Below, in pieces: positions 2,513-19,321 of a stretch of 30,976 nt of DNA; the first letter of the stretch is position 1; the number at the start of each line of letters is the position of its first letter. The notes beneath the pieces were generated by a model that was given only the letters and a program-made list of their open reading frames with translations, was not told the DNA's origin and searched no databases. Both the position numbers and the translations under genes were made by a program. The stretch lies in assembly GCA_963843145.1 (NCBI GenBank), contig CAWJJC010000016.1, positions 1-30,976 of the forward strand. The letters run 5' to 3'. This DNA comes from an uncultured delta proteobacterium. Its GTDB lineage: Bacteria; Desulfobacterota; RBG-13-43-22.

Positions 2513-4024
2513 TAGTAGACGCCACCGCGCCCATTGTCACTTCCATTACTCGCCTCAATCCCAACCCTACCAAACTCGCCAGCGTGGATTTCACGGTCAC
2601 GTTCTCCGAAGCCGTCAACGGCGTGGATACGAGCGACTTCGCTTTGTCTGTAAGCGGCGTCTCCGGCGCGGCCGTAAGCGGATCCAGCGGCTCGGGCAGT
2701 GTCTACACGGTAACCGTGAACACCGGCTCGGGCAACGGCACGATCCGACTGGATGTGTCCGCTGGTGCAACCGTCACCGACTTAGCTGGGAACCCGCTGA
2801 CGGGCCTTCCCTACTCAAGTGGCGAGAACTACGTGGTTGACAAAACCGCGCCCACGGTGGCGATGACTTCGCTCGCGTCCGATCCGACCAACGCTTCACC
2901 CATTGCAGTCAGCGTGACCTTCAGCGAAAGCGTCACCGGCTTTACTTCAGACGACATTGCTGCCGGTAACGGCGCGGTCAGCAACTTCGCGGGTAGCGGC
3001 GCAAGTTACACCTTTGATCTCACGCCTGCCGGGCAGGGATTGGTCACTGCCAATATTGCCGCGCGTCGCCCGTTCGGCTGGCAACGGTAACACGATCCCG
3101 CCCAACTAGCCGCACTTACGACACACCGCGCACGTGGCGATGACTTCAGCTCGCGCCATCGACCACGCTTCACGCCATCGTAGCGTGACCTTAGCGAAAG
3201 CGTCACCGGCTTTACTCCAACGACAGCTGCCGGTAACGGCGCGGTCAGCAACTGGTAGCGGCGCGTACACCTTGACAGCCGCGGGCAGGGATGGCACCCA
3301 ATATTGCCGGCGTGGCAACCGATTCGGCTGGCAACGGTAACACGTCGCCGCCCAACTCAGCCGCATTTACGACACGACCGCGCCCACGGTGGCGATGACT
3401 TCGCTCGCGTCCGATCCGACCAACGCTTCACCCATTGCAGTCAGCGTGACCTTCAGCGAAAGCGTCACCGGCTTTACTTCAGGCGACATCACTGCCGGTA
3501 ACGGCGCGGTGAGCAACTTCGCGGGTAGCGGCGCAAGTTACACCTTTGATCTCACGCCTGCCGGGCAGGGATTGGTCACTGCCAATATTGCCGCGGGCGT
3601 GGCAACCGATTCGGCTGGCAACGGTAACACGATCGCTGCCCAACTCAGCCGCACTTACGACACGACCGCGCCCACGGTTTTATCCAGCCTGCGCGTCAAC
3701 CCCAATCCCACGAATCTCGCCAGCGTGGATTTCACGGTCACCTTCTCTGAATCCGTGACAGGCGTGGCTACCGGCGATTTCGCCCTGGCCAAAACCGGCA
3801 CCATCAGCGGCGAATCTGTCACGGGCGTCAGTGGCGGCCCGACAATCTACACCGTGACTGTCAACAGGGGCAGCGGAAACGGCACCTTCCGCCTGGATAT
3901 GCCCTCCAGCGCAACCATCTCCGATCAGGCCGGGAACCCGCTGGCTGGCCTGCCATACACAAGCGGCGAGACCTACACGGTGGAGGAAAGCTACTGGATC
4001 TACCTGCCGCAGATTAGGCGTTAG
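1..4024 (+). CDS. Large repetitive surface/extracellular protein (5' end outside window; multiply frameshifted): parallel beta-helix repeats, choice-of-anchor-Q-like domains, tandem bacterial Ig-like domains
   Basis: Stitching frames gives recurring [16 protein letters not shown] repeats, three [22 protein letters not shown](D/N)TGN..CP.TD.RGV.RPQ..CDIGA(F/Y)E blocks, D.TAP.V..V.FSE.V.G Ig-like units and a C-terminus [13 protein letters not shown] (TAG 4022-4024). Split over ORFs 282-1025, 838-1245, 1486-1992, 1745-2134, 2101-3090 and 3389-4024. Confidence 0.85.
1857..2185 (+). repeat. About 69-75 bp intragenic tandem repeats encoding beta-helix coils (similar array at ~680-1070)
   Basis: Repeated ccgacgttgacgaacgtcaccttcagcggcaactcg...ggcggcgggatg units. 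Confidence 0.9.
2845..3665 (+). repeat. Three tandem ~250-290 bp Ig-like domain repeats; middle copy heavily degraded
   Basis: accgcgcccacggtggcgatgacttcgctcgcgtccgatccgacc starts at ~2845 and ~3377; the copy at ~3126-3376 follows the same sequence with many small deletions. Confidence 0.9.
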
Positions 4025-4093
4025 CCACTGATAGAAGCAGATGCCGGGGCATGATTGCAGATTGCCCCGGCATCCAAATCCCAGCTTCGGGAT

Positions 4094-4886
4094 TCACATC
4101 AATCCCCGATAATAGCCCCCGTCCACTTGAATCGTGGCCCCAGTGATATAGCCGGCCCGCTCCGAGGCCAGAAAGACCACCAGGTCCGCCAAGTTCTTCC
4201 GGCTTCCCCAGACGCCCCATCGGTATCTCCGCCTCCCAGCCTTTGATGACCGCTTCGGGGGTGGTCTGCTGCCGTTGGGCTATCACTTCGGATAGTTCAC
4301 GAACCCGTTCGGTCAGCGTGTATCCCGGGCAGACGTTATTGATCAAAACATTGTCCGGCGCGTAGATTGTGGCTAGGGTCTTGGCCAGTCCCACCAATCC
4401 GGTCCGCAGGGCATTGGAAAGAATCAACCCCAGGATCGGCTGTTTTACGGCCACGGAGGTCAGGTTGATGATCCGTCCGAACTTTCGGGCCTGCATGACC
4501 GGGATCGCCGCCTTCATCAAAGTCGCGGCACTCATCAGGGTCAACTGGAAGGCCTCCTGCCAGTGATCCTCGCTGATCTCCATAAAAGGCAGGGAAGGCG
4601 GTCCTCCGGCGTTGTTAACCAAGATATCCACCTGCCCGTAATGCTCATAGGCCTCCCGGAAAAAACGACGAGCCTCTTCGGAAGAAGACAAATCCACCGC
4701 CAGAGAGATGACTTCCGTCCCGGCCTCCCTGCGGATCTCCTCGGCCGCCTGCTGAATATTTTCCAGATTACGGGAACAGATCGCCAACCGAACCCCCTCC
4801 CGGGCCAACCCCAGGGCCACGGCTTTCCCCAAGCCCTTACTGGCCCCGCACACCAGGGCTACCCGATCCTTAAGACCTAAATCCAT
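4094..4886 (-). CDS. SDR family NAD(P)-dependent oxidoreductase (FabG-like), one +1 frameshift near the 3' end
   Basis: GASKGLG Rossmann motif, VNNAG, NNVCPG. Removing one base near 4192 restores the canonical SDR end [34 protein letters not shown] (TGA at 4094-4096), 263 aa. SD AAGGAGG upstream. Confidence 0.9.
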
Positions 4887-4957
4887 GTCAGGGCCTCCTT
4901 ATTATATTGAAAATACCATGATATCCAGAGGATTACATAAAATGGCGACGAATACTC

Positions 4958-4999
4958 TGTCAACAGATTTATTGACATTTAGAATGATTTAAGTAGGAT
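4958..4999. promoter_or_regulatory. Back-to-back TTGACA boxes, candidate divergent sigma70 promoters
   Basis: TGTCAA 4958-4963 (minus-strand -35) and TTGACA 4972-4977 with TAGGAT at 4994-4999 (16-bp spacer); the minus-strand -10 is weak. Confidence 0.45.
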
Positions 5000-5081
5000 A
5001 TGATAGATGGGACCGAACCCATCTTGATCTAGAGAAGCAGTCTGATAGGAGTGTTGTGCTGGCGACTATTTGGGGGTTGCT

Positions 5082-5741
5082 GTGAGAAAGGCGGTTGACG
5101 GGACGAATGGGAATCATGAGATTAATGGGAAAGCGTCTCCCCAGAATTCCCAGACCTCCCATGATTCTCACTCTTTGATTTTACCCCCTCGGGGCGACTA
5201 CCAAACCCTTCTTTCTTATCAGAAATCCGAGGTGGTCTATCAAATAACCTACCGGTTCTGTGAGCGCTTCCTCAGAAAGAGTGACCGCACGGTCGATCAG
5301 ATGGTACAGGCCGCCCGCTCCGGCAAACAAAATATCGTTGAGGGGAGCAAGGCTGCGACCACATCCAAAGAGATGGAGATCAAGCTGACGAATGTGGCGC
5401 GGGCCAGTCTGGAAGAGTTGCTGGAGGATTACCGGGATTACCTGCGAGTGCGTGATTTGTCCATCTGGGACAAAGATAACAGCAAAGCCAAATACGTCCG
5501 CAAGCTGGGGATGACTTCGCCCCTGACATTCGAGGTATTTCGAGAGTTCACCGAGACCCGCCCCGCCGAGATTTTGGCCAATATTGCGATATGTCTGATT
5601 CACCAGGCTAATTATTTGCTGGATCAGCAGCTAAAGGCGCTGGAAAAGAATTTTCTAAAAGACGGTGGTCTGCGCGAGCGGATGACCCGCGCCCGTTTGC
5701 GGGCAAGAGATCAACAGCGGAAGGGACGGGTAAAGGACTAA
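5082..5741 (+). CDS. Four helix bundle protein with suffix domain (23S rRNA IVP/Avd-like superfamily)
   Basis: GDYQTLLSYQKSEVVY..DRTVDQMVQAARSGKQNIVEGS..EIKLTNVARASLEELLEDYRDYL and C-terminal GGLRERMTRARL are characteristic. Start uncertain (TTG 5070 or GTG 5082). Confidence 0.85.
   Translation: MRKAVDGTNGNHEINGKASPQNSQTSHDSHSLILPPRGDYQTLLSYQKSEVVYQITYRFCERFLRKSDRTVDQMVQAARSGKQNIVEGSKAATTSKEMEIKLTNVARASLEELLEDYRDYLRVRDLSIWDKDNSKAKYVRKLGMTSPLTFEVFREFTETRPAEILANIAICLIHQANYLLDQQLKALEKNFLKDGGLRERMTRARLRARDQQRKGRVKD
5100..5170. repeat. Inverted arrays of degenerate 9-mers in the 5' end of the four-helix-bundle gene
   Basis: GGGACGAAT GGGAATCAT GAGATTAAT GGGA (5100-5130) opposed by TCCCAG/TCCCAT-type units; TGGGAATCATGAGA (5108-5121) pairs with TCCCATGATTCTCA (5157-5170), with two non-Watson-Crick positions. 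Confidence 0.65.
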
Positions 5742-5763
5742 CGGTTGAACGCCACGGTTAGGC
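5736..5763 (+). mobile_element. Collapsed attC-like site
   Basis: GACTAAC (contains the upstream gene's TAA) ... GTTAGGC; R''/R' boxes only 28 bp end to end, L boxes missing. Confidence 0.55.
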
Positions 5764-6308
5764 TGCCAACCATTCAACTATCGCTACCTCAATTGATTGC
5801 ATCCATCCTCTATAGGTCTGGAGGTTCTTGGGAGAATTTGGGCAAGTTTTGTTATGGGTGGGGGGGGGAATATTTTACACAAAAGTCAAAGTAATAACGA
5901 AGCCATTTTCTATAAATCTCTCGCAGGTTGGCGGGAACAGCATTATTTTGCAAATAATGCTCGAATTGGTCCCGTACCGCGGGAGGGATAGCCAGCATTA
6001 AGAATCCTCCGGTTTCTGTATATCTATCTATTTGACATGATATAGATCATGTCCATTTATGAAACAAAAATAATTTATCAATAAAATATTTATATTTTAT
6101 GGTTGGTTACCAAGAATCTGAGGGGGTTGCAAACCAAATAGTCAACAAAGATAGGCCAATAGTATTTGTTCCCCTCCCCCAAAAAAACCAATTGGGGGGA
6201 GGTTACAAAGAAAACTTTAGAATAACTTGATGGGCCGCCCGTCGTCTCCCCAACCCCCAGGCTGCGGAGCGCCTCCGTCAAAAAGTTTTTAGGCCTGCGG
6301 GTCCCCGG

Positions 6309-6367
6309 CCCATCAAACGGATGGAGCAGACGCGCCAACGTCGCGCTCCTCATCCTGGGGGTTATGA
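6309..6367 (+). mobile_element. Degenerate attC site
   Basis: caaacGGATGGAGCagacGCGCcaacgtcGCGCtccTCATCCtggggGTTATGA: imperfect palindrome with L-box-like GGATGGAG/CTCATCC and R'-like GTTATGA, followed by SD and ATG; R'' damaged. Confidence 0.65.
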
Positions 6368-6388
6368 TTAAACTGAAAGGAAGCGATA

Positions 6389-6914
6389 ATGCTCGTGTCC
6401 AAATCCAAAGTTTATGAATTGGCTCTCTCCTCTATCAAAGAACAATACGTCAGTGACTTTCTGCACAAGTACCTCCCAAGTGTCTCCCCCAATTCTCACT
6501 GAATATGGTGGCAGGTTCTTGATAAACGGGATTATTCAAAACTCGATTGCCGGAAAGTTTCCCGCAAAGAGCTTTGCCATTCTGGAATGGCCTTCAATCG
6601 AGCAGTTTATCAGAATCAATGAAGATGAGAGAGTAATCCCTTTGCTTCGAAGGCGGAATCAATACCTGGATTTCATCGCTGAAGGCTGTTTCTACAGAGT
6701 TTTGGAAGACACTGACTTTGAGTTCCCAAGAAACAAGACGATGAACCTCCTCTTAACCGATAGGGCTATTCCTGACGACCGGAACACCCGATTTCAATGG
6801 ATAGACGACGTCAAGAACTCGAAGCTCTCACTGAACGTGTATTTCTATGGTGATGGGGCAAGTCGATATGACGAAGACCGAGACGTTGAGGAGTTGTCAG
6901 TTCAAGTTTTGTAA
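6389..6914 (+). CDS. DUF1330-like protein, cassette-type gene with one frameshift
   Basis: SD AAAGGAAG then ATG 6389 (MLVSKSKVYELALSSIKEQYVSDFLHKYLPSVSP); an extra C in the C5 run at 6486-6490 shifts into ILTEYGGRFLING..AILEWPSIEQF, which resembles DUF1330. Confidence 0.65.
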
Positions 6915-6920
6915 ACCCAG

Positions 6921-6965
6921 CCATAACCCGCCGTTGCACCGGATCGCTTACGCTCCAGGGAAGCA
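6921..6965 (+). mobile_element. attC left part (right end decayed)
   Basis: CCATAACccgccgttgcaccggatcgcttacgctcc begins 6 nt after the stop; its CATAAC is the reverse complement of GTTATG at 6361-6366, as expected for one cassette. Confidence 0.7.
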
Positions 6966-7057
6966 AGTTTCTAATATTCTGTTACTAGATGTAATCTCGA
7001 CCTATCCACCATTTTGACCTGGGGCCTAGGAACCAAATCAATCTGACGACCCTCTAT

Positions 7058-7084
7058 GCCGCCAGCTGATGACTATCGTTGACC
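7058..7084 (+). mobile_element. attC right-half remnant preceding vapBC
   Basis: gccgccagctgatgactatcGTTGACC; GTTGAC nearly matches the reverse complement of GCCAAC at 7746-7751 at the far end of vapC. Confidence 0.45.
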
Positions 7085-7129
7085 TTGACATACATTGAAT
7101 TGTGTGCTAGATTGTGTAAAACTTTGTGT
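7085..7129 (+). promoter_or_regulatory. sigma70 promoter of vapBC with overlapping direct repeats
   Basis: TTGACA 7085-7090, 17-bp spacer, TGn-TAGATT 7108-7113; TTGTGT at 7100, 7112 and 7124. Confidence 0.8.
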
Positions 7130-7145
7130 TGATAGGAGGGCGAAA

Positions 7146-7343
7146 ATGGCAACTAATCTAGCTATCGACCAGAAATTACTAGAAAAAGCATTGGAAGTCA
7201 GTGGCTTTAAAACCAAGAAGGAAACTGTTAATTTGGCTTTACAGGAATTCATAAACAGACATAAACAGTTAGAAATACTTAATCTTTTTGGCAAAATGGA
7301 TCCAGACCCCAAATATGATTATAAAAAAGGAAGAGCCCGGTGA
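7146..7343 (+). CDS. vapB: Type II toxin-antitoxin VapB-family antitoxin
   Basis: SD AGGAGG then MATNLAIDQKLLEKALEVSGFKTKKETVNLALQEFI..YDYKKGR; GTGA overlap with the PIN gene. Confidence 0.9.
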   Translation: MATNLAIDQKLLEKALEVSGFKTKKETVNLALQEFINRHKQLEILNLFGKMDPDPKYDYKKGRAR

Positions 7344-7762
7344 AAGTTCTCGTCGATACTCCTATCTGGTCTTATGCTTTACGGACTCGACAAACAGAAT
7401 ATTCATATGAAATAGATCAGCTTGAATCTCTCATCAAGGATCAAAGAGCTCTGATCATTGGACCAATTCGTCAAGAAATCCTTTCCGGTTATAGTGACTT
7501 TAAGAAATTTGGAGAATTGAAAGAAAAACTATCTTTTTTTGAAAATTCCCTTATTCAAGACTCTGATTATGAATCTGCAGCCGAAATGTGTAATCAATGC
7601 AGAAAAAAAGGAATTCAAGGCTCTCACATTGACTTCCTCATATGTGCAGTTGCAAACAGATTGGATGTCCCCATTTTCACCACAGATAAGGACTTTTTCC
7701 AGTACAGGAAGGTTCTTTCGATAAAACTATTTGAGCTGCAACCAAGCCAACGACAAATGTGA
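7340..7762 (+). CDS. vapC: PIN-domain toxin VapC
   Basis: VLVDT, QEILSG, IDFLICAVA, IFTTDKDF acidic PIN motifs. Confidence 0.92.
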   Translation: MKVLVDTPIWSYALRTRQTEYSYEIDQLESLIKDQRALIIGPIRQEILSGYSDFKKFGELKEKLSFFENSLIQDSDYESAAEMCNQCRKKGIQGSHIDFLICAVANRLDVPIFTTDKDFFQYRKVLSIKLFELQPSQRQM

Positions 7763-7779
7763 ATTTGTGGCGAACGCTC

Positions 7780-7976
7780 TCTGGAATGGAAAATGGAGGC
7801 TGCAAGGAACTGGAAACTTCAAAACATGGTTTCCGCTGGATTTTAGCCGCCCCAAACGGGACCGGATATTCCTGGCTACGCTAAAGGACCAACGGGTTAC
7901 TATCGGATTCACTGTTGAAGATGGGGACCGAGTGGAGCTGCTCCTAAGAGACAAGAATCTGATTAGATCAGGATAA
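7780..7976 (+). pseudogene. 3' remnant of a hypothetical cassette gene
   Basis: Protein-like GKWRLQGTGNFKTWFPLDFSRPKRDRIFLATL..IGFTVED with no credible start; its stop lies in an attC-like GGATAAC. Confidence 0.45.
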
Positions 7977-7996
7977 CCACCAAGCTATCGTTACCG
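7971..7996 (+). mobile_element. Collapsed attC-like site
   Basis: GGATAAC (contains TAA) caccaagctatc GTTACCG, then SD and the methyltransferase start. Confidence 0.45.
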
Positions 7997-8020
7997 CGAA
8001 GGATAAGGAAACCATCGAAA

Positions 8021-8593
8021 ATGGCATCTACCAAGACGCACGTCTGTCCCTGGTGGTTGATTTACACCTTTGATAACCCCCTGCGGCGGTTGGTCCAGAA
8101 GCCGGAGCGGATTCTCCAGGATATCGTTCGTCCGGGGGACGCCTGCCTGGACCTGGGATGCGGGATCGGCTTTTTCACGATTCCCCTGGCCCGAATCGTC
8201 GGACCTTCCGGGTCCGTTACGGCCGCGGACTTGCAGCCGGAGATGCTCTCCGGTGTCAAACGTCGCGCGGAGAAAGCCGGATTGTTGTCCCGGATCCGTT
8301 TCCATCAGGTAGAACTTTCAGGTTTGTCTTTTGATGCGGAATTTGACCTGGCCCTGGCGTTCTGGATGGTGCACGAAGTGCCGGATCAGGAATCGCTGCT
8401 TCAACAGATCTGCCGGGCGCTCAAGCCCGGCGGACGATTCCTGCTGGCGGAGCCTAAAGGACACGTCAGGCAAGCCGCCTTCGATCGGACCGTGGATATC
8501 GCCGAGAAAACCGGACTCACGAAAGTCAAACCTCTCGACGTTATCTTTAGCCACGCTGTCCTCCTGATCAACAGGAGTGGGTCGGTTGCCTAA
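8021..8593 (+). CDS. Class I SAM-dependent methyltransferase
   Basis: CLDLGCGIG motif I, ADLQPEML, FDLALAFWMVHEV, LKPGGRFL; N-terminal HVCPWW. Confidence 0.9.
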   Translation: MASTKTHVCPWWLIYTFDNPLRRLVQKPERILQDIVRPGDACLDLGCGIGFFTIPLARIVGPSGSVTAADLQPEMLSGVKRRAEKAGLLSRIRFHQVELSGLSFDAEFDLALAFWMVHEVPDQESLLQQICRALKPGGRFLLAEPKGHVRQAAFDRTVDIAEKTGLTKVKPLDVIFSHAVLLINRSGSVA

Positions 8594-8607
8594 CCCTGCG
8601 CTCAACA
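8588..8607 (+). mobile_element. attC left-end remnant
   Basis: GCCTAACcctgcgctcaac: RYYYAAC box containing the methyltransferase TAA, followed by a typical attC spacer/L'' start, then running directly into coding sequence. Confidence 0.65.
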
Positions 8608-8627
8608 GCAGACTCAGGCAACGAACC

Positions 8628-12666: not shown

Positions 12667-12715
12667 TTGACAGGGCCCCGGGTTGGCTTTAAATTGTTAA
12701 CATCGTGAACGATTT
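12667..12715 (+). promoter_or_regulatory. marR promoter and candidate operator
   Basis: TTGACA 12667-12672, 17 bp, TAAATT 12690-12695; imperfect inverted repeat AAATTGTTAAC-ATC-GTGAACGATTT overlapping the -10 and start codon. Confidence 0.7.
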
Positions 12716-13184
12716 TTACCCCACTTCTAAAGAACAGATAAGCCGCTACCAGGCCCAAAAACTTCAGGACCTGATTGCCGAAATTACCCAGTGCTGCCAG
12801 GAAAAGACCCTCTACCAGGCCCAAAAGTTTGGTCTGACCCAGGCGGAGATGAAATGCCTGTTGCTCTTTAAGGAAGCGCGCTACCTGACGGTCAAGGGCT
12901 TGGCCCAAAAGCTGGAAGTGGCCAAAAGCCGGATCACCAAGATTATTGATGGATTAGTGAATAAACGATTGGCGCAGCGGATCGACGATCCGGAAGATGC
13001 CCGGGTGATATTAATCGGCCTGACCCCGGAAGGGCAAAAACAGGTCGAGGCCCTCGACGTGTTTTTAAAGGACCTCCACCACCAGTTATTGCGGGAACTG
13101 AAGGAAGACGACCGAAAAAGTGTTTTAGCCTCCTTGGAAACCCTAAGGTCATCCATGGAGGTGATCAAACAACAATTGGTTTAG
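12705..13184 (+). CDS. MarR family transcriptional regulator
   Basis: FGLTQAEMKCL..LTVKGLAQKLEVAKSRITKIIDGLVNKRLAQRIDDPEDARVILIGLTPEG winged-helix pattern. Confidence 0.93.
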   Translation: MNDFYPTSKEQISRYQAQKLQDLIAEITQCCQEKTLYQAQKFGLTQAEMKCLLLFKEARYLTVKGLAQKLEVAKSRITKIIDGLVNKRLAQRIDDPEDARVILIGLTPEGQKQVEALDVFLKDLHHQLLRELKEDDRKSVLASLETLRSSMEVIKQQLV

Positions 13185-13197
13185 CTGGTTTGGTTTT

Positions 13198-13224
13198 TTT
13201 GTTAATCCTATTAACTATAACAAA
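13198..13224 (+). promoter_or_regulatory. Second candidate MarR operator upstream of the dsrE-like gene
   Basis: Perfect GTTAAT-CCT-ATTAAC (13201-13215), same 6-3-6 layout as the site at 12696-12710. Confidence 0.6.
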
Positions 13225-13258
13225 GTAAATTAACCCAATTCACCGAAAGGGGGATGTT

Positions 13259-13810
13259 ATGGAAATGGAAGCCATTGAAAAACAACTGGCCGAATTAAAA
13301 GCCCAAGTGGACGGCCTGGCCGGCTCCAAAACGGAGGAAAAACTCTCCATGATTGTTTTCAGCGGGGACCTGGACAAAGCCCTGGCCGCTTTTATTATTG
13401 CTACCGGAGCCGTGGCCATGGGTTTGGAAGTGATTATGTTTTTTACCTTTTGGGGCACGCCGATCCTGCGGGATAAAAACAAGAATGTGGGCGGCAAGGA
13501 CCTGATGGGTACGATGTTCGGATCCATGCTCCCTAAGGGAGCCGGGAAAGTAAAGCTCTCCAAGATGAACATGGGCGGGATGGGTACCGCTATGATGAAA
13601 TCGTTGATGAAAAAGAAAAACGTGGCCTCTTTGGAAGAGTTTATTAAAATGGCCGCCGAACTGGAAGTCAAGATATTCATCTGCGAAATGTCCATGGACC
13701 TCATGGGTTTCAAGCATGAAGAAATGATCGATTACCCCGGGGTAGAATACGTCGGGGTGGCTACCTTTCTGGAACATGCCATCAACAGCAAAATTACCTT
13801 ATTTCTTTAA
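13259..13810 (+). CDS. DsrE/DsrF/DrsH-like (DsrE2-type) sulfur-transfer protein
   Basis: IVFSGDLDKALAAFIIATGAVAMG..MFFTFWG..LSKMNMGGMG..KIFICEMSMDLMG..YVGVATFL with the conserved Cys. Confidence 0.9.
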   Translation: MEMEAIEKQLAELKAQVDGLAGSKTEEKLSMIVFSGDLDKALAAFIIATGAVAMGLEVIMFFTFWGTPILRDKNKNVGGKDLMGTMFGSMLPKGAGKVKLSKMNMGGMGTAMMKSLMKKKNVASLEEFIKMAAELEVKIFICEMSMDLMGFKHEEMIDYPGVEYVGVATFLEHAINSKITLFL

Positions 13811-13829
13811 AATCAAAAGGAGAGAGACA

Positions 13830-14072
13830 ATGGCCGAAGCATTCAACGTCGACAAAGTGATGGACTTAAAAGGACTTCCCTGCCCTATGCCGGTGGTCAA
13901 GGTCAGCAAGGGCATCAAAGAAATTCAAGTAGGCCAGGTCATCGAAGCCCTGACCACGGACCCCGGGGCTCTGGCGGATTTTCCGGCCTGGGCCCGGACC
14001 AGCGGCAACGAAATTTTGAAAACCGACCAGGGCGACGGGGTTATAAAAATTTACATCAAACGCCTTAAATAA
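13830..14072 (+). CDS. tusA: TusA-family sulfur carrier protein
   Basis: DLKGLPCPMPVVK (CPxP), TTDPGALADFPAWARTSGNE; SD AAGGAG, ATG 13830, 80 aa. Confidence 0.93.
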   Translation: MAEAFNVDKVMDLKGLPCPMPVVKVSKGIKEIQVGQVIEALTTDPGALADFPAWARTSGNEILKTDQGDGVIKIYIKRLK

Positions 14073-14092
14073 ACCTCCTCAACTTCCCCAAC

Positions 14093-14119
14093 CCCCGTCC
14101 CCGGAATCCGGGGGCGGGG
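14093..14119 (+). other. GC-rich intergenic stem-loop between tusA and the cytochrome b gene
   Basis: CCCCGTCCCCGGA-A-TCCGGGGGCGGGG; no U-tract immediately after. Confidence 0.6.
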
Positions 14120-14196
14120 CCCTTCTCCGGCGGAGGGGCAACGGGAAAAATCCTTTTGAGGGAAAGATGGTCCTTCTTTTTATCCGATAGGAGGGA

Positions 14197-14913
14197 ATGA
14201 TGAAAACGATCTATTACCTGATCCTGGTACCCATGGTCTACCTGGCTTTCCTGGTCTTTATCGTGGGGACGATAAGCAAGTTGGCCAAGATTTTCGGCAG
14301 TCCGAAAAATCCGGCCAGCACGCTGCAGATCTATCCGCAAAAAAATCCCCCCTGGTTTTGGGCCCTGGCGGATTCCTTTTTAATGCCCTCGGTCCGGCGT
14401 CATAAACCGCTGCACTGGGTCTTCCTGATGTCCTTCCACATCGCCCTGCTGCTGTTGATCATCGGCCATCTGGAATTGTTCGAGGGCTTCAATGTCTTCC
14501 AGTTCATCCCCCACGAGATCTTTCTGGGGAAAGGCTTTGTCGGACTGGTTTTATCGCTGACCCTGCTCTTCTTTCTCTTCCGGCGTTTCGCCTCGCCGGT
14601 CAGGGACCTTTCCATTCCGGAAGACTATTATCTGCTGATCCTGCTGTTTCTGACCGTGCTCTTTGGCGCCCAGATGGACTGGGCCCGCCGCTGGTATGGG
14701 TACGGCGAAATGGGGCCCGGCGATTATAAAACCTATTTCACCAGTCTGTTGTTCCTGCGCCCCGAAGTCCCGGACGCCGTTTACCAGACCGGACATTCCT
14801 TCATGCTGGTCCTGCATATCTTCTTTGCCAACCTGTTCATCATGCTCTTTCCTTACAGCAAGATCATGCATTCATTTTTAACTATTCCCATGAATAAATT
14901 AAGGAGGGGATAG
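14197..14913 (+). CDS. NarI/DsrM/HmcE-family di-heme membrane cytochrome b
   Basis: About five TM segments; His pairs FH-x9-H and LH-x17-H (FPYSKIMH) match NarI-type heme b ligand spacing. Confidence 0.9.
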   Translation: MMKTIYYLILVPMVYLAFLVFIVGTISKLAKIFGSPKNPASTLQIYPQKNPPWFWALADSFLMPSVRRHKPLHWVFLMSFHIALLLLIIGHLELFEGFNVFQFIPHEIFLGKGFVGLVLSLTLLFFLFRRFASPVRDLSIPEDYYLLILLFLTVLFGAQMDWARRWYGYGEMGPGDYKTYFTSLLFLRPEVPDAVYQTGHSFMLVLHIFFANLFIMLFPYSKIMHSFLTIPMNKLRRG

Positions 14914-14915
14914 CC

Positions 14916-16169
14916 ATGGATGAAAAAACGCGCGACGATCTACTGAAACTCTTTCAATCCAAACTCAATGAAGCCATGCGCTTTTACCTGGAGACCTGCT
15001 CGCGGTGCGGGATCTGCACCGAGGCCTGCCATGCCTACCAGTCCATGGGCCAGGTCCGCTATATTTCAGCCTACCGCCACGAGATCGTCCGGCGGATTTA
15101 TAAAAAATATTTTAAGGGCCAGGGGAAAGCTTTTCCGGCCTGGGGGGAAAGCAAGGAATTGACCGAAATGGCCCTCCAGGAGTTATCGGAAGCGGCCTAC
15201 TCCTGCACCGGCTGCCGGCGCTGCATGGTCTACTGCCCCCACGGCATCGACACCCAGATGCTGATGTCGATCGCCAAACTGCTCCTGGTCGGATCCGGTA
15301 CCGAGCCGGAGATCCTTTCCATGCTGGCCGACACCTCCATTGAAAAAGGAAAATCCCTGGAGTTCTTCAAAGAGGGATTTTTGACCGGGATCAAGAACCT
15401 GGAGGCCCAGGTCGTTGAAAAATGGCGGGGGGAAGCCGGGCAAACCCCCATTCCTGTGGATGTGGAGGGAGCCGATCTGCTCTATGTGGCCCTGGCCGGG
15501 GCCCATTCGATTATTCCAGCGGCCGCCATTTTCAACGCCGCCCAGGAAAACTGGACCTTGAGTTTTTTTGAAGCGGTCAACTTTGGGGCCTTTGTGGGTG
15601 ATCCCACCAAGAGCAAGCTGATCTTGGATCGAATCCTGAACGAAGCCAAAAGGCTGAAAGTGAAGGAGGTCTGCATCTGCGAATGCGGCACCGCCTTCCG
15701 GGTGATGAAGCAGCTTTCCGGGAAACAGCCTTTTAAAGTCAGTTCCATCACCGAAGTCCACGCCCGTTACCTCCGGGAGGGACGGATCCGGGTAGAGAAA
15801 GACAAATTCCAGGTCCCGATCACCTATCACGACCCTTGTCAGATGGCCCGCAACGCCGGAGTCATCGACGAACCGCGGTATATCCTTAACCAGTTAACCA
15901 GCCGGTTTATCGATATGACCGCGGATGTACGCTACAACTGGTGCTGCGGCGGTGGCGGCGGTCTGGTGGCCCTGGGGGAGGAAACGCTCGACTTTCGCAT
16001 GAAATCGGCGACGGTCAAAGTGGATCAGGTCAAGAAAACGGGGGCCAAAATTCTGGCCACGGCCTGCGAAAACTGCCACACCCAACTCAGCGATCTAAAC
16101 GACCATTATCAGATGGGTGTGGAAGTGAAATTTCTCTCCTCCCTGGTGGCCGATGCCTTGGTTCATTAG
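14916..16169 (+). CDS. DsrK/HmcF/HdrD-like (Fe-S)-binding oxidoreductase with CCG domain
   Basis: CSRCGICTEACH and CTGCRRCMVYCP ferredoxin motifs; EAVNFG..ECGTA; YHDPC..CCGGGGG..TACENC. Confidence 0.92.
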   Translation: MDEKTRDDLLKLFQSKLNEAMRFYLETCSRCGICTEACHAYQSMGQVRYISAYRHEIVRRIYKKYFKGQGKAFPAWGESKELTEMALQELSEAAYSCTGCRRCMVYCPHGIDTQMLMSIAKLLLVGSGTEPEILSMLADTSIEKGKSLEFFKEGFLTGIKNLEAQVVEKWRGEAGQTPIPVDVEGADLLYVALAGAHSIIPAAAIFNAAQENWTLSFFEAVNFGAFVGDPTKSKLILDRILNEAKRLKVKEVCICECGTAFRVMKQLSGKQPFKVSSITEVHARYLREGRIRVEKDKFQVPITYHDPCQMARNAGVIDEPRYILNQLTSRFIDMTADVRYNWCCGGGGGLVALGEETLDFRMKSATVKVDQVKKTGAKILATACENCHTQLSDLNDHYQMGVEVKFLSSLVADALVH

Positions 16170-16233
16170 GGGAGGAGTATGTATATAAAATTTCTAATCA
16201 TTCAAAATCGAAAGGAAGAAAGGAGATGAAAGC

Positions 16234-17493
16234 ATGAAAAGAATCTTGAAAATGGGTGTTATGGTGGGACTAGTGGTCCTCTGGGCTTCCCTGGCCTTGG
16301 CTACCAACGGGGACAATTTAATCGGCATCGGACCGGCCTCTCGGGCCATGGGCGGCGTGGGCATCGCCGCTCCCCAGGACGCCATCAGCGCCGTGTTTTC
16401 CAACCCGGCCGCCATGTGCTTCGGGCCCTACTGCCCAGGGTCGGAATTCAATTTTGCTGGGACCCTCTTCACCCCCAAAGTGGACGCCAAGGTAACGCTC
16501 GGGGGCAATACGATCAAAGCGGACAGCAAAGAAAATGTCTATGCCATCCCGGCCATCGGCCTGTCCACCCCGATTACCAAGACCCTGCCCCTCTGGCGTT
16601 TCGGCTTAGCGGCCTACGGCGTCTCCGGGCTGGGGGTGGATTATCGCAATACCAGCCTGGATCAGCCCCAGTATGCCAATTTCGGTGGGTATCCCCTGGT
16701 CGCCGGCGGCTACACCCAGTTGTCGATCATGAAGTTCGCCCCCTCCATCGCCTTTGAGCCGAACAGCCAATTTTCCTTCGGCCTGGCCGCCCACATGGAT
16801 TACGCCATGCTGGACATGGGCAGCGGCACCTCTGCCGGCTACGGCTTTGGGGCTCAACTCGGCATGATCTACAAGCCGATGGATCGACTCTCCCTGGGCG
16901 CCACTTATGTCACCCCCCAGAAAGTCAAGCACGAGCGGGTCGCGGATTTCGACGGAAACGGCATCAAGGATGATCTCGATCTGGAATCTCCGCAACAGGC
17001 GGGTCTGGGTGTGGCCTTCGATATCCTGCCGGGCAAGCTGTTGGTCGAAATGGACGGCAAGTGGATCAACTGGGCCAACGCCGCCGGGTATAAGGATTTT
17101 GATTGGGAAGACCAGTGGGTCTTCGGCTTTGGGGCCCAGTACAAGCCCACGGAAAAACTGATACTGCGGGCCGGCTACAATTACGCCAACAACCCGGTCA
17201 AGAACCACAACGGTTTCGCGGGAACCAACCCGGTCCAGGTCCAGGGCAAATACATGCCCGCCTATTACTACGAAACCTTCCGGATTATCGGCTTCCCGGC
17301 TATCACCAAAAGCCACGTCACTTTCGGTATCGGATACGAATTTTCCAGCCGGTTTTCCGCCCATGTCGGTTATACCTATGGTTTCGGCGAATCGATCAGC
17401 GAAAATGGCACGGCCCTTAACGGCCAGCCGGCTCGCCTGGAATCCAACCTGACCGAAATGAGCTATGAATTTGGTTTGACCTGGCGCTTCTAA
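16234..17493 (+). CDS. OmpP1/FadL-family outer-membrane channel
   Basis: Signal peptide ending ALA|TNG, hatch motif RAMGGVGIA..NPAAM, amphipathic strands, LRAGYNY, terminal WRF. Confidence 0.9.
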   Translation: MKRILKMGVMVGLVVLWASLALATNGDNLIGIGPASRAMGGVGIAAPQDAISAVFSNPAAMCFGPYCPGSEFNFAGTLFTPKVDAKVTLGGNTIKADSKENVYAIPAIGLSTPITKTLPLWRFGLAAYGVSGLGVDYRNTSLDQPQYANFGGYPLVAGGYTQLSIMKFAPSIAFEPNSQFSFGLAAHMDYAMLDMGSGTSAGYGFGAQLGMIYKPMDRLSLGATYVTPQKVKHERVADFDGNGIKDDLDLESPQQAGLGVAFDILPGKLLVEMDGKWINWANAAGYKDFDWEDQWVFGFGAQYKPTEKLILRAGYNYANNPVKNHNGFAGTNPVQVQGKYMPAYYYETFRIIGFPAITKSHVTFGIGYEFSSRFSAHVGYTYGFGESISENGTALNGQPARLESNLTEMSYEFGLTWRF

Positions 17494-17512
17494 GGTCGCG
17501 GAGCGCTAAGCG

Positions 17513-17548
17513 CGGTTCGGAGAAGGCGGGTCCGTCTTCTCCGAACCG
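17513..17548. terminator. 17-bp stem-loop after the FadL-family gene
   Basis: CGGTTCGGAGAAGGCGG-GT-CCGTCTTCTCCGAACCG (one G-U pair). Confidence 0.6.
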
Positions 17549-17559
17549 GTCTGACAATT

Positions 17560-17600
17560 CTAAAGAAATCCCCCCTGTCCTTTAGGGGGGATTTCTTTAG
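17560..17600. terminator. Probable bidirectional intrinsic terminator
   Basis: Perfect 17-bp inverted repeat CTAAAGAAATCCCCCCT / AGGGGGGATTTCTTTAG between convergent genes. Confidence 0.8.
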
Positions 17601-19321
17601 CGTATATAGGCTTCGGTGACGTAGCGCCGCATCATCCGGTGGGTATTAAAATAGTAGGCATTCTGACCGATGGTGTTCCCCATCATCCAGACCCAGATGC
17701 TCCGGGCGTCATAATAGGTGGGGATAATTTCCGTTTCCAGCTTGGCATACAAATCATCGGAGTCCCGGGTGTCGTGGTTCTCCACCAGGTTCGTTTCCAC
17801 CGGACTGGGGCCGATCGACCAGCCGGTGTCCCCCTCGATATAGCCTTCGATCCACCAGCCGTCCAAGACGCTAAAATTCATCACCCCGTTATGAGCGGCC
17901 TTCATACCGCTGGTGCCGGAGGCCTCCCGGGGCCGTTGGGGAGTATTCAGCCAAACATCTACTCCGGATACCATCTTCAGGGCAATGTCCATATCGTAAT
18001 TGCTCAAATAAACCATTTTGATTTTGCCGGCCAGCCGTTCCTTATAAGCGAAAATTTTTTCGATCAGGGCCTTGCCCGGCGTGTCATGGGGATGGGCCTT
18101 GCCGGCATAGACGATCTGAATTTTTCCGGCGGCAATTTTTTCCAATCGCTCCAAATCGCTGAACAACAGATCGGCCCTTTTGTAGGCCGTGGCCCGGCGG
18201 GCGAAACCGAGGGTCAGGACATTCAAATCCATCTCCACCCCGGTCTGCTTCAAAATGAAATCCAGGAGCGCCCCTTTAGCCGTCTGGTGGGCCTCCCAGA
18301 TTTCATTATCCGGTATCCGGCCCACCCGGACGAAAAGCTCCGGCTCGTTGGCCCAGCCCGGCAGGTATTTGTCGTACAGTTTTTTAAAGCTGTCGCAGGT
18401 CCAGGTATAGGAATGGACCCCGTTGGTAATAGCATTGATTTTATATCCCGGGAACATATTCCGGGATACTTCCCCATGCTTCTTGGCCACCCCGTTGACG
18501 AATTCGGTCAGGTTCAGGGCCAAAATCGTCATGTTCAGTTCGTCGGTTCCGGCCAGTCCCTTGAGGATGTCCAGGGGGATGAGGCTTCCGAGAACGCGCT
18601 CGACCAGGTCGTAGGGGAAACGATCATGGCCGGCCTCCACCGGGGTATGGGTGGTAAAGACGCAGAGGTCCTTCACACTGTGGACGTCCCAGATCAGTTT
18701 TTCGTCCCAGACCTCCTCAATGGGCCTTTTAAATTTATTCAGCAACTCCAGGGTCAGCAGGCTGGCGTGCCCCTCGTTGAGGTGATATTTCTTGATTTCG
18801 AAACCCAGTTCCTTCAACATTCGGACGCCCCCGAGACCGAGGACGATTTCCTGCTTGAACCGGTAGGCCTGGTCGCCGCCGTAAAGCGAGGCGGTGATTC
18901 CCCGGTCTTCCGGGGTGTTCCCCTCCACGTCGGTATCCAGGAAAAAAACCGAGACCTTACCTCCGGTTAAACTTTTGACCACATAGTGCCAGGCTTGGAC
19001 TGCCACCGCCCGCCCCTCGATCTCCACCGAAACCTGCCGGCTCAGCCGAGTCATAAACGTGGCCGGGTCCCAAATATAGGGATGTTCAATCTGACGGCCT
19101 TTTTCATCCAATTCCTGGCGAAAAAATCCCTTCCGGGTAAGCAGGGTCACCGCCACCATAGGCAGTTCCAGGTCGGCCCCCGATTTGATCGTGTCCCCGG
19201 CCAGCACCCCCAGTCCGCCGCTGTAGGTGGGAATATTGCTGTTGATCCCGATCTCCATGGTAAAATAGGCGATCATCGGTTCTGCGGTTAGGTCCATCAA
19301 TAGTTTTTGTTCGGCGTTCAT
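17597..19321 (-). CDS. glgP: Alpha-glucan (glycogen/maltodextrin) phosphorylase
   Basis: YSGGLGVLAGD, HLNEGH, FTTHTPV, ITNGVH, FARRATAYKR, AGKAHP, PLP-lysine motif EASGTSGMKA. Confidence 0.95.
   Translation of the reverse strand: MNAEQKLLMDLTAEPMIAYFTMEIGINSNIPTYSGGLGVLAGDTIKSGADLELPMVAVTLLTRKGFFRQELDEKGRQIEHPYIWDPATFMTRLSRQVSVEIEGRAVAVQAWHYVVKSLTGGKVSVFFLDTDVEGNTPEDRGITASLYGGDQAYRFKQEIVLGLGGVRMLKELGFEIKKYHLNEGHASLLTLELLNKFKRPIEEVWDEKLIWDVHSVKDLCVFTTHTPVEAGHDRFPYDLVERVLGSLIPLDILKGLAGTDELNMTILALNLTEFVNGVAKKHGEVSRNMFPGYKINAITNGVHSYTWTCDSFKKLYDKYLPGWANEPELFVRVGRIPDNEIWEAHQTAKGALLDFILKQTGVEMDLNVLTLGFARRATAYKRADLLFSDLERLEKIAAGKIQIVYAGKAHPHDTPGKALIEKIFAYKERLAGKIKMVYLSNYDMDIALKMVSGVDVWLNTPQRPREASGTSGMKAAHNGVMNFSVLDGWWIEGYIEGDTGWSIGPSPVETNLVENHDTRDSDDLYAKLETEIIPTYYDARSIWVWMMGNTIGQNAYYFNTHRMMRRYVTEAYIR

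Follow-up and report, generated by a model that had tools for sequence, protein, structure and literature searches.

A stretch of 30,976 nucleotides (nt) from an uncultured delta proteobacterium of the Desulfobacterota (contig CAWJJC010000016.1 of assembly GCA_963843145.1; the whole stretch is called the window below) carries a compact gene cluster in which a MarR-family regulator precedes two sulfur-carrier proteins, a membrane cytochrome b, a DsrK-like iron-sulfur protein, and a FadL-type channel. The first five genes keep the same order in many other genomes, and the DsrK-like protein appears by its sequence to represent a family of its own. We read the cluster as one regulated operon in which a persulfide-sensing MarR controls a quinone-linked reductase that acts on sulfane sulfur bound to TusA and DrsE_2, with its chemistry in the cytoplasm and its electrons wired to menaquinone, and we give this reading about an even chance of being right.

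Six intact open reading frames (ORFs), all on one strand, occupy positions 12705-17493. Each matches its own family in Pfam and NCBIfam, in agreement with the initial annotation of six co-oriented intact genes:

12705..13184, + strand: MarR-family regulator, 159 amino acids (aa) (PF12802, 5.9e-9; PF01047, 1.4e-8)
13259..13810, + strand: DrsE_2 family protein, 183 aa, DsrE2B-like, soluble type (PF13686, 1.3e-54)
13830..14072, + strand: TusA sulfur carrier, 80 aa, Cys-Pro-Met-Pro site with Cys18 (PF01206, 1.4e-21)
14197..14913, + strand: NarI/DsrM-like membrane cytochrome b, 238 aa, 5 predicted transmembrane helices (PF02665, 1.1e-11)
14916..16169, + strand: DsrK-like CCG iron-sulfur protein, 417 aa, cytoplasmic (CCG domain PF02754, 9.4e-13, plus Fer4_8)
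16234..17493, + strand: FadL/TodX-family outer-membrane channel, 419 aa, with a signal peptide and a terminal Phe (PF03349, 4.7e-22)

The dsrK-like gene starts 2 nt past the narI-like stop codon and has its ribosome-binding site within narI-like. The true start of tusA is most likely the ATG at 13830, which has AAGGAG ahead of it, rather than the ORF start at 13776.

Evidence that these genes belong together comes from their order elsewhere. Contigs taken at one genome per species encode a DsrK-like relative at 215 places, and synteny was read from the best 80 of these by mapping the six window proteins onto them with tblastn; each count below is over loci with enough flanking sequence. The NarI-like gene stood beside the DsrK-like gene in 79 of 79 loci, TusA was present in 73 of 73, and DrsE_2 was present in 69 of 69. 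MarR lay upstream of DrsE_2 in 63 of 64 loci. Because the same order recurs in 80 loci of other genomes, the arrangement is not due to chance, and the earlier idea of one module is borne out for the core genes. The FadL gene follows the cluster less regularly (31 of 66 loci). None of dsrJ, dsrO, dsrP, dsrC, and dsrAB is present in the window or among the tblastn-mapped genes of the 80 loci. In a second subfamily of the DsrK-like protein (50-58% identical), the order DrsE_2-TusA-NarI-DsrK-like is kept in three of five loci and the redox pair only in two of five. The locus that departs from the rule for MarR, L086, carries at 535-8615 the whole MarR-DrsE_2-TusA-NarI-DsrK-like cluster in tandem duplicate, followed by a fragmented FadL match.

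How widespread is the cluster? An even set of 301 genomes of the phylum contained the DsrK-like gene (E <= 1e-100) in 16, including 7 of the 9 other members of the host family. By their record titles, the related loci come from Desulfatiglandales, Desulfobacterales, Desulfacinum, and Desulfosoma. Desulfacinum infernum DSM 9756 is a cultured carrier (L023), and the Desulfosoma carrier (L032) is a metagenome-assembled genome. In the databases, more than 3000 relatives of the DsrK-like protein were found at E <= 1e-20 among the 8000 candidates that were scored. None of the best 120 is less than 82% identical to it, and their names are "Fe-S oxidoreductase" or "(Fe-S)-binding protein", apart from 3 JGI records named "[DsrC]-trisulfide reductase subunit K". 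Record titles assign five loci (L042, L025, L045, L037, and L063) to NC10, Leptospirales, Hyphomicrobiales, or Pseudomonadota, yet the proteins of these loci are 79-82% identical to those of the window, which points to mislabelled bins or horizontal transfer.

The redox pair and its sulfur carriers

The DsrK-like protein is, judging from its cysteines, a member of the DsrK/HdrD superfamily of CCG proteins. Its two CX2CX2CX3C motifs (C28/31/34/38 and C97/100/103/107) and the complete CCG set (C308, C343, C344, C384, and C387) are present in 81 of 81 sequences, and all 16 cluster cysteines are kept in 79-81 of the 81. Scores and phylogeny place the DsrK-like proteins in a family of their own, distinct from DsrK, TmcB, and HmcF. 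The protein reached 255.1 bits against the NCBIfam DsrK model (NF045796), under the cut-off of 400, and it likewise stayed below the cut-offs for TmcB (227 bits; cut-off 735) and HmcF (211.5 bits; cut-off 750). It is 417 aa long as against about 540-555 aa for DsrK ORFs, and its pairwise identity to DsrK, TmcB, and HmcF is 26-33% (26-29% to DsrK).

A quick IQ-TREE tree of 58 proteins (LG+C20) included the window type, its subfamilies at 56% and 50% identity, DsrK, K2-like paralogues, TmcB, HmcF, and two distant CCG outgroups. The window type and the two distant subfamilies formed one clade with a Shimodaira-Hasegawa-like approximate likelihood ratio (SH-aLRT) support of 100. The DsrK, K2-like, TmcB, and HmcF clades (the last including HmcF-like proteins) were each supported at 100 and lay apart from the DsrK-like clade. 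The DsrK-like clade was sister to DsrK plus K2-like at only 87, and long branches meet where DsrK and K2-like join each other. The initial description of the protein as DsrK-like is supported: it is a CCG relative of DsrK with its cluster cysteines kept, and by score and tree it is not DsrK, TmcB, or HmcF.

Its membrane partner matched PF02665 with 45.3 bits (cut-off 22.9). Scores against DsrM (NF038037, 31.9 bits; cut-off 300) and TmcC (NF045723, 45.3 bits; cut-off 240) were below the cut-offs. The protein has 5 hydrophobic segments, and His81, 91, 106, 200, 207, and 225 are present in 72 of 72 sequences. The spacings of H81/H91 and H207/H225 (10 and 18) equal the haem-ligand spacings of E. 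coli NarI. The NarI-like protein is probably a cytochrome b of the NarI/DsrM type, with five helices and two haems. Neither a signal peptide nor a clear membrane segment is present in the DsrK-like protein, TusA, or DrsE_2, which places the chemistry in the cytoplasm.

Two likely sulfur carriers are encoded ahead of the redox pair. TusA matched PF01206 with 76.5 bits (cut-off 28.6) and the E. coli TusA equivalog NF001423 with 41.2 bits, under its cut-off of 78; its C18-P-M-P site is invariant (69 of 69). A role in selenium metabolism was considered for this protein and rejected, as the YedF models score below both the TusA model and their cut-off and selenium genes are absent nearby. DrsE_2 (PF13686, 184.8 bits) has a single cysteine, Cys142, in 69 of 69 sequences. 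Its score against the NCBIfam DsrE2 model (NF047629, DsrE2A type) was 100.9 bits, under the cut-off of 210, and it has one borderline hydrophobic segment instead of two transmembrane helices and one conserved cysteine instead of two. The nearest PDB entries, 3pnx (2.8e-33) and 2qs7 (3.8e-19), are both soluble. The available part of one report describes 2qs7 as a Sulfolobus DsrE2B homologue (PMC4175335).

A predicted complex connects TusA to the redox pair. The DsrK-like protein and TusA gave a complex score of 0.70 (runs 0.70, 0.70, and 0.75), and the best of three controls scored 0.00. Of 157 solved complexes, 116 attain the mark used for this score, as do 2 of 215 mismatched pairs; these benchmark counts are only a rough guide here because own alignments were used. 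The outcome supports binding at the level of prediction. The partners have a predicted local distance difference test value (pLDDT) of at least 86, and at least 95% of contacts are common to the runs. TusA contacts include residues 16-19, around the active-site Cys (residue 17 in the numbering of the model), and the contacts of the DsrK-like protein are 133-162, 193-199, 219-223, 352, 354, and 385. Residues 352, 354, and 385 flank the CCGGGGG stretch or sit inside C384-E-N-C387 (E385). In other words, the prediction puts the TusA active-site loop beside the CCG motif. No like complex was found when the PDB was searched by sequence, the sole match being weak (9ojn_A, 6e-8). The earlier suggestion that TusA and DsrE act in place of DsrC fits this model.

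One alternative is that the NarI-like and DsrK-like proteins are a second DsrMK that reduces the DsrC trisulfide as DsrMKJOP does, and that TusA and DrsE_2 merely feed DsrC. DsrK is indeed the best NCBIfam match of the DsrK-like protein, the three JGI names point the same way, and the accessible parts of two papers record deltaproteobacterial dsrMK-only copies alongside DsrMKJOP (PMC10504309, PMC6018796). Against it, the DsrK score lies well under the cut-off, the protein falls in a clade apart from DsrK and K2-like, the pair is never beside dsrC or dsrAB in 80 loci and always beside tusA and drsE2, and TusA itself is predicted at the CCG site. We consider a second DsrMK quite unlikely; genomes without dsrA, described below, bear on it from both sides.

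Regulator, transcripts, and outer-membrane channel

The features around the six genes are the following:

12667..12695, + strand: sigma-70-like promoter, TTGACA-17 nt-TAAATT, just 5' of marR, with 10 of 12 consensus matches
12696..12710, no strand assigned: predicted MarR operator O1, GTTAACATCGTGAAC, overlapping the marR GTG start directly 3' of the promoter-like site
13201..13215, no strand assigned: predicted MarR operator O2, GTTAATCCTATTAAC, in the marR-drsE2 spacer
14093..14119, + strand: GC-rich hairpin, 13 bp, in the tusA/narI-like spacer, a possible attenuator or processing site
17513..17548, + strand: first terminator-like hairpin, 16-bp stem, predicted by folding
17560..17600, no strand assigned: second hairpin, 18-bp stem with A-rich/T-rich flanks, predicted by folding

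MarR has the family domains and a conserved palindrome at its own gene, and it is accordingly classed as a MarR family member with a predicted operator. The predicted operator sequence is GTTMAYNNNRTKAAC, and the strict motif is a 15-bp pseudo-palindrome, GTT[AC]A[TC]N3[AG]T[ATG]AAC. The strict motif occurs exactly twice in the window (12696 and 13201) and five times in the 5.35-Mb genome. It was found at 32 of 58 marR starts of related loci, as against a shuffle mean of 0.025, with no shuffle giving more than 1. Its most common position is 9 nt 5' of the marR start, so that the start codon lies inside the motif. The marR-drsE2 spacers carry the strict motif in 24 of 65 loci and a loose form in 31 of 65 (shuffle mean 0.02). 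C30 and C31 of MarR are present in 60 of 60 sequences and C51 in 52 of 60. MarR is therefore probably an autoregulated, thiol-based repressor of the operon. A wider regulon was considered and rejected, because the other three strict sites of the genome (on contigs C8, C12, and C19) lie within or beside unrelated genes; their neighbours are a Lcl_C-domain protein, the far side of an HdrB-like CCG gene, and a sugar transferase.

In a scan of the window for promoters and terminators the number of sites was no higher than in its own shuffles, and the promoter is a consensus match only. The region with both closing hairpins (17494-17600) folds at -64.9 kcal/mol with z = -7.3, and 0 of 200 shuffles were as stable, which bears out the two strong hairpins noted earlier. 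The second one is likely a two-way terminator common to the operon and a convergent phosphorylase gene. The 64-nt dsrK-like/FadL spacer is unstructured (-4.7 kcal/mol, z = -0.28). The tusA/narI-like spacer folds at -57.1 kcal/mol with a z of only -1.3 relative to shuffles, so that its hairpin is indistinguishable from the composition of the spacer. This hairpin (14093-14119) could reduce read-through into the redox genes; its stability is no greater than that of shuffled sequence.

Three metatranscriptome runs from one study, holding 5-8% of the sampled words, yielded contigs from relatives that are 85-95% alike. They cover DrsE_2, TusA, NarI-like, DsrK-like, and FadL, and they span tusA to narI-like and narI-like to dsrK-like. 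These contigs show only that close homologues are present in RNA libraries.

Does the FadL gene belong to the cluster? The protein matched PF03349 with 78.5 bits (cut-off 29.7) and has a hydrophobic N-terminus; its score against the E. coli FadL equivalog was 18.7 bits, under the cut-off of 585. Its model (pLDDT 86.4; predicted template modelling score, pTM, 0.83) has as best PDB match TodX (3bs0_A, E 1.3e-30, template modelling (TM) score 0.63), followed by FadL (TM 0.66-0.69), TbuX, and CymD. The N-terminal hatch is far better conserved than the barrel and carries an NPA motif followed by C62-x4-C67. N57-P58 is invariant and A59 nearly so, and C62 and C67 are present in 26 of 27 cluster-linked orthologues. 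The cysteine pair is gone in L160, L161, and the divergent L029, and one Cys is gone in L162.

FadL matches at E <= 1e-30 were found in 19 of the 301 phylum genomes, and a copy at 50% identity or more in 10. Eight of these 10 genomes also have the cluster, and FadL adjoins it in six of the eight (G000, the host, with G070, G258, G178, G169, and G288); of the remaining two, G199 is ambiguous at contig ends and G138 has FadL on another contig. Outside the cluster, FadL adjoins DrsE_2 genes in three of four loci with flanks (L158, L159, and L161). L158 has the order MarR (50% identical)-DrsE_2 (72%)-FadL (51%) with the operator motif in between, and L161 has FadL-DrsE_2. This pairing outside the cluster is the best evidence that the channel serves a sulfur relay, and it led to the rejection of FadL as an unrelated neighbour. 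Further support comes from FadL being the sole PF03349 gene of the host and from the hairpins, which come after FadL and not before it. Together these observations suggest that FadL belongs functionally with the cluster. The initial annotation had counted the channel as part of the module; its linkage to DrsE_2 elsewhere favours this, and its presence in fewer than half of the loci shows that it is not a fixed part.

Several loci with or without FadL show further features. At L159:4488-6437 (G244), a frameshifted FadL is followed on the same strand by a CsoR/CstR-family repressor (PF02583) and then by a DrsE_2-like gene. At L160:5609-10626 (G210), a FadL orthologue that is 42-44% identical and lacks the Cys pair has as neighbours SudA/NfnB-like and SudB/NfnA-like genes, whose domains (Fer4_20 plus Pyr_redox_2; NAD_binding_1 plus DHODB_Fe-S_bind) are the make-up of sulfide dehydrogenase/NfnAB. 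In the closest relative's locus (L009), the NarI-like and FadL matches are split. Where FadL is missing, sulfur- or thiol-related genes downstream of the cluster are few: a second DrsE_2 (L080), an ArsP-type permease (L039 and L040), thioredoxin plus DsbD (L044), and MsrAB (L058). At L081:7487-10171 and L087:7344-10029, also without FadL, a rhodanese-metallo-beta-lactamase fusion (persulfide-dioxygenase-like) and ATP sulfurylase lie directly downstream.

The regulator and the channel also admit a different explanation, namely that the cluster is a stress system for thiols and disulfides or for electrophiles, unrelated to inorganic sulfur. MarR would then sense oxidants or a hydrophobic organic compound imported by FadL, and the CCG protein would re-reduce protein or low-molecular-weight disulfides with TusA and DrsE_2 as redox partners. 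MarR regulators commonly sense oxidants and aromatic compounds, and FadL/TodX channels, including the closest PDB matches listed above, carry fatty acids and aromatics. The thioredoxin, DsbD, and MsrAB genes at L044 and L058 fit as well. On the other hand, both TusA and DrsE_2 belong to families of sulfur carriers and have one invariant active-site cysteine each, unlike redox proteins of the CxxC kind. Members of the FadL subfamily recur beside DrsE_2 genes and once lie beside a CsoR/CstR-family repressor, and no aromatic or fatty-acid degradation genes lie beside the cluster within the window. We regard a stress system as very unlikely.

The sulfur-relay reading can be carried further. The redox pair may be a DsrC-independent, quinone-coupled reductase or oxidase of TusA-persulfide (or TusA-S(n)-DrsE_2), that is, a minimal respiratory module for zero-valent sulfur, which together with a FadL channel for S8 (with its hatch Cys-x4-Cys) and a persulfide-sensing MarR would make a complete route of uptake, relay, and redox chemistry. 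This larger proposal is possible, and we hold it only tentatively. If it is true, such a route could be the missing cytoplasmic step in the handling of elemental sulfur (S0) in many sulfate reducers and disproportionators.

Proposed reaction and relation to the Dsr pathway

In the preferred reading, in which MarR governs a menaquinone-linked reductase of carrier-bound sulfane sulfur, MarR would bind the 15-bp palindrome over its own start codon and the second copy ahead of drsE2, and it would probably leave the DNA once Cys30-Cys31 is persulfidated or oxidised. DrsE_2 (Cys142) and TusA (Cys18), by analogy with their families, would collect and relay sulfane sulfur as Cys-persulfides. Once loaded, TusA would bind the cytoplasmic DsrK-like subunit beside its CCG-bound iron-sulfur cluster, as the complex model predicts. 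This subunit would sit on the five-helix di-haem cytochrome b and exchange electrons with menaquinol, as the families of both proteins suggest. The most likely net reaction would be that menaquinol and carrier sulfane sulfur (TusA-S-SH or a TusA-S(n)-DrsE_2 bridge) give thiols and H2S, a DsrC-independent analogue of the action of DsrMK on the DsrC trisulfide or of HdrDE on CoM-S-S-CoB. Where present, the FadL-type channel would be the outer-membrane passage for hydrophobic sulfur (S8 or organic polysulfanes). The substrate (S8, polysulfide, organic polysulfane, or thiosulfonate), the direction, and the sensing chemistry are all inferred.

The host itself has Dsr genes. Its genome measures 5.35 Mb over 32 contigs, of which the window is C16. 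Contig C3 carries dsrA (613 bits), dsrB, dsrC, and a true dsrK (726.8 bits) together, and aprA lies on C14 in several frames; the host thus holds a gene set for dissimilatory sulfite/sulfate reduction. The initial statement that the window has no dsrC, dsrAB, or dsrJOP is right for the window only, since dsrA, dsrC, and a true dsrK are on C3 of the genome. The host DsrC is joined by two weaker DsrC/TusE-like genes. DrsE_2 is present in one copy in the genome, and five TusA genes are over the cut-off, the four besides that of the cluster being on C25, C22, C23, and C27.

Across the phylum sample, dsrA was found in 156 of 301 genomes, and the cluster in 13 of these 156. Three carriers lack dsrA: G138 (100% complete), G286 (100%), and G276 (93%). 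All three have the full MarR-DrsE_2-TusA-NarI-DsrK-like order, and DsrC and DsrK over the cut-off were found in none of the three, which argues against DsrC as an obligatory partner and against a second DsrMK. MarR, DrsE_2, and TusA are intact in G138 and G286, which both belong to the host family, and the cluster copy of G276 is cut by a contig end.

A number of observations weigh against a menaquinol-driven reductase that works apart from the Dsr pathway. Most carriers in the phylum sample also have dsrA (13 of 16). The dsrK-like gene of G138 is broken by an in-frame TAG at the invariant Tyr285, and the narI-like gene of this genome contains one stop; the dsrK-like gene of G286 shifts frame near residue 270. 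These interrupted redox genes may be a sign that the redox pair relies on the Dsr pathway. They also speak for a second DsrMK, as do the DsrC and DsrC/TusE-like genes of the host. Errors of assembly could explain the breaks, as could a recent decay of the redox pair once Dsr was lost, and the evidence comes from two closely related genomes only. The direction of electron flow is not readable from sequence, and S0 reduction by menaquinol is thermodynamically tight. The docking controls were without DsrC, the other four TusA paralogues, and the true DsrK. FadL is absent from 35 of 66 loci, and the genes in its place are heterogeneous (47 ORFs scanned). Among the RNA contigs listed, none joins dsrK-like to fadL, and such contigs cannot give level, strand, or a single transcript. 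Finally, Metallosphaera DsrE2B was unreactive with all six sulfur compounds in vitro, according to the portion of PMC4175335 that was available. The description of the module as "self-contained" in the initial annotation is not borne out, given the dsrA of most carriers and the interrupted redox genes in two dsr-less genomes of the same family.

The same machinery could also run in reverse. It would then oxidise carrier sulfane sulfur or sulfide with menaquinone as acceptor or hand sulfur to DsrC and DsrAB, as an entry point for sulfur oxidation or disproportionation with a reductive-type Dsr, and FadL would take up or release S8. The conversion of sulfide to S0 with menaquinone is thermodynamically easier than the opposite, and the frequency of dsrA among the carriers is consistent with such a partnership, as are the rhodanese-metallo-beta-lactamase and ATP sulfurylase genes downstream at L081 and L087. 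DsrMK(JOP) with TusA/DsrE2 is oxidative in sulfur oxidisers, as far as the available text of three sources goes (PMC3397948, PMC5573963, PMC13293266). However, no DsrEFH, DsrL, or Sox genes are in the locus, the cluster is rare among dsrA-positive genomes, and the sequence fixes the direction neither way. The reverse direction and its link to Dsr are unlikely in our estimate, and the reductive operon is retained as the preferred reading.

The flanks of the locus are unrelated to it: upstream are two divergent genes for ABC exporters, and the gene downstream (17597-19321, - strand) is convergent and glucan phosphorylase-like. Some other features of the window and the host genome deserve a record. 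Window positions 5000-8000 have a G+C content of 0.41-0.50 as against 0.55-0.62 around them and are possibly foreign or mobile DNA. An ORF at 5070-5741 in this stretch has a sub-threshold match to the 23S rRNA intervening-sequence protein (27.7 bits; cut-off 33.8), and its other ORFs are without a Pfam match. Two ORFs at 2101-4024 have bacterial Ig-like domains (Big_12 and Big_5) and are perhaps one frameshift-split gene. In the host, aprA (G000:C14:53502-55285) matched as six pieces in different frames; for this and for the split matches at L009, the cause may be either insertion or deletion errors of the assemblies or real frameshifts. Another two genes of the DsrK/HdrD family in the host (G000:C3:55382-56554, - strand, and G000:C32:45571-46587, + strand) each have one in-frame TGA. 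So do weaker matches to the DsrK model, at about 140-170 bits, in G042, G008, G058, G031, and G024, and such genes may encode selenocysteine-containing CCG proteins.

Comparison with known systems

The uptake and processing of elemental sulfur and polysulfides in Desulfobacterota are still unresolved, and the accessible literature debates the markers YTD, MOLY, and DsrE2. The locus offers a different and directly testable candidate: a strongly conserved operon of five genes whose sulfur carriers are joined to a CCG enzyme in a separate clade, with regulator and operator both predicted and with a link to FadL. If TusA rather than DsrC is the substrate, the known range of partners of DsrK/HdrD-type enzymes widens, and the database names "DsrK" and "Fe-S oxidoreductase" for the DsrK-like protein could be corrected.

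A persulfide-sensing repressor over TusA/DsrE-domain sulfurtransferases is found in the Staphylococcus cst operon (CstR-CstA-CstB). In contrast to the window, the cst operon is without a membrane redox module, and its repressor is of the CsoR type and not of the MarR type. Another system with TusA and a DsrE-superfamily protein, in Desulfobacterota themselves, is the YTD cluster (yedE/yeeE-tusA-dsrE-like-chp1-chp2; DsrEFH type II). It has been proposed, in the parts of the sources at hand, for sulfur disproportionation or oxidation (PMC12998232, PMC13047784, PMC13293266). The window locus differs by its cytochrome b, CCG protein, and MarR, often with FadL, and by a DrsE_2 of PF13686; no YedE/YeeE permease and no chp1/chp2 (DsrFH-like) genes are in the locus. 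The DsrE2A described in the available text of PMC12998232 is a two-helix membrane protein, whereas the DrsE_2 of the window has one cysteine and is soluble-like.

The closest parallels for the carriers are rhd-tusA-dsrE2 of Allochromatium vinosum and dsrE3A-dsrE2B-tusA of Metallosphaera cuprina, the latter beside sHdr. These systems share with the window a TusA with Cys-Pro-X-Pro, a DsrE2-group protein, and, by the available part of PMC4175335, a link to a redox system of the heterodisulfide-reductase type. In the window this is a membrane pair of the DsrMK type and not a soluble HdrABC-like complex with a lipoate-binding protein, there is no rhodanese or DsrE3, and the host has reductive Dsr genes (dsrA, dsrC, and dsrK, with apr in pieces). 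The sHdr set (hdrC1B1A-hyp-hdrC2B2, with lbpA by dsrE3 and tusA) is not in the locus, which is the only part of the genome that was searched for it. For the channel, the parallel is CT2230 of Chlorobaculum tepidum, a FadL-family protein proposed for hydrophobic sulfur chains, which in the accessible text of the preprint is not clustered with TusA, DsrE, or DsrMK (bioRxiv 10.1101/172254).

A full-text literature search, with supplements outside its scope, found no description of this gene combination, in line with the earlier remark that it was not known as a characterised system; the papers that it turned up deal with YTD, DsrEFH type II, sHdr, and rhd-tusA-dsrE2. The cluster appears to be uncharacterised and poorly named in databases. 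Its parts are from known families. HdrDE of methanogens and TmcBC and HmcEF of Desulfovibrio likewise connect the quinone or methanophenazine pool to cytoplasmic disulfide chemistry by way of a membrane cytochrome b and a CCG subunit. The window pair differs from TmcBC and HmcEF by the low TmcB and HmcF scores and separate clades given above and by being without periplasmic cytochrome c subunits. With DsrMK and DsrMKJOP it shares a NarI-type di-haem cytochrome b, a cytoplasmic protein with two ferredoxin-type motifs and a complete CCG set, translational coupling of the two genes, and a small cysteine-bearing protein as presumed substrate. It differs by a shorter DsrK-like protein in a separate clade and by a locus from which dsrJOP, dsrC, and dsrAB are missing and in which tusA and drsE2 are the neighbours every time. 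In its logic, with sulfur carriers and a CCG enzyme on a quinone-linked cytochrome b, the cluster follows DsrMK with DsrC and HdrDE.

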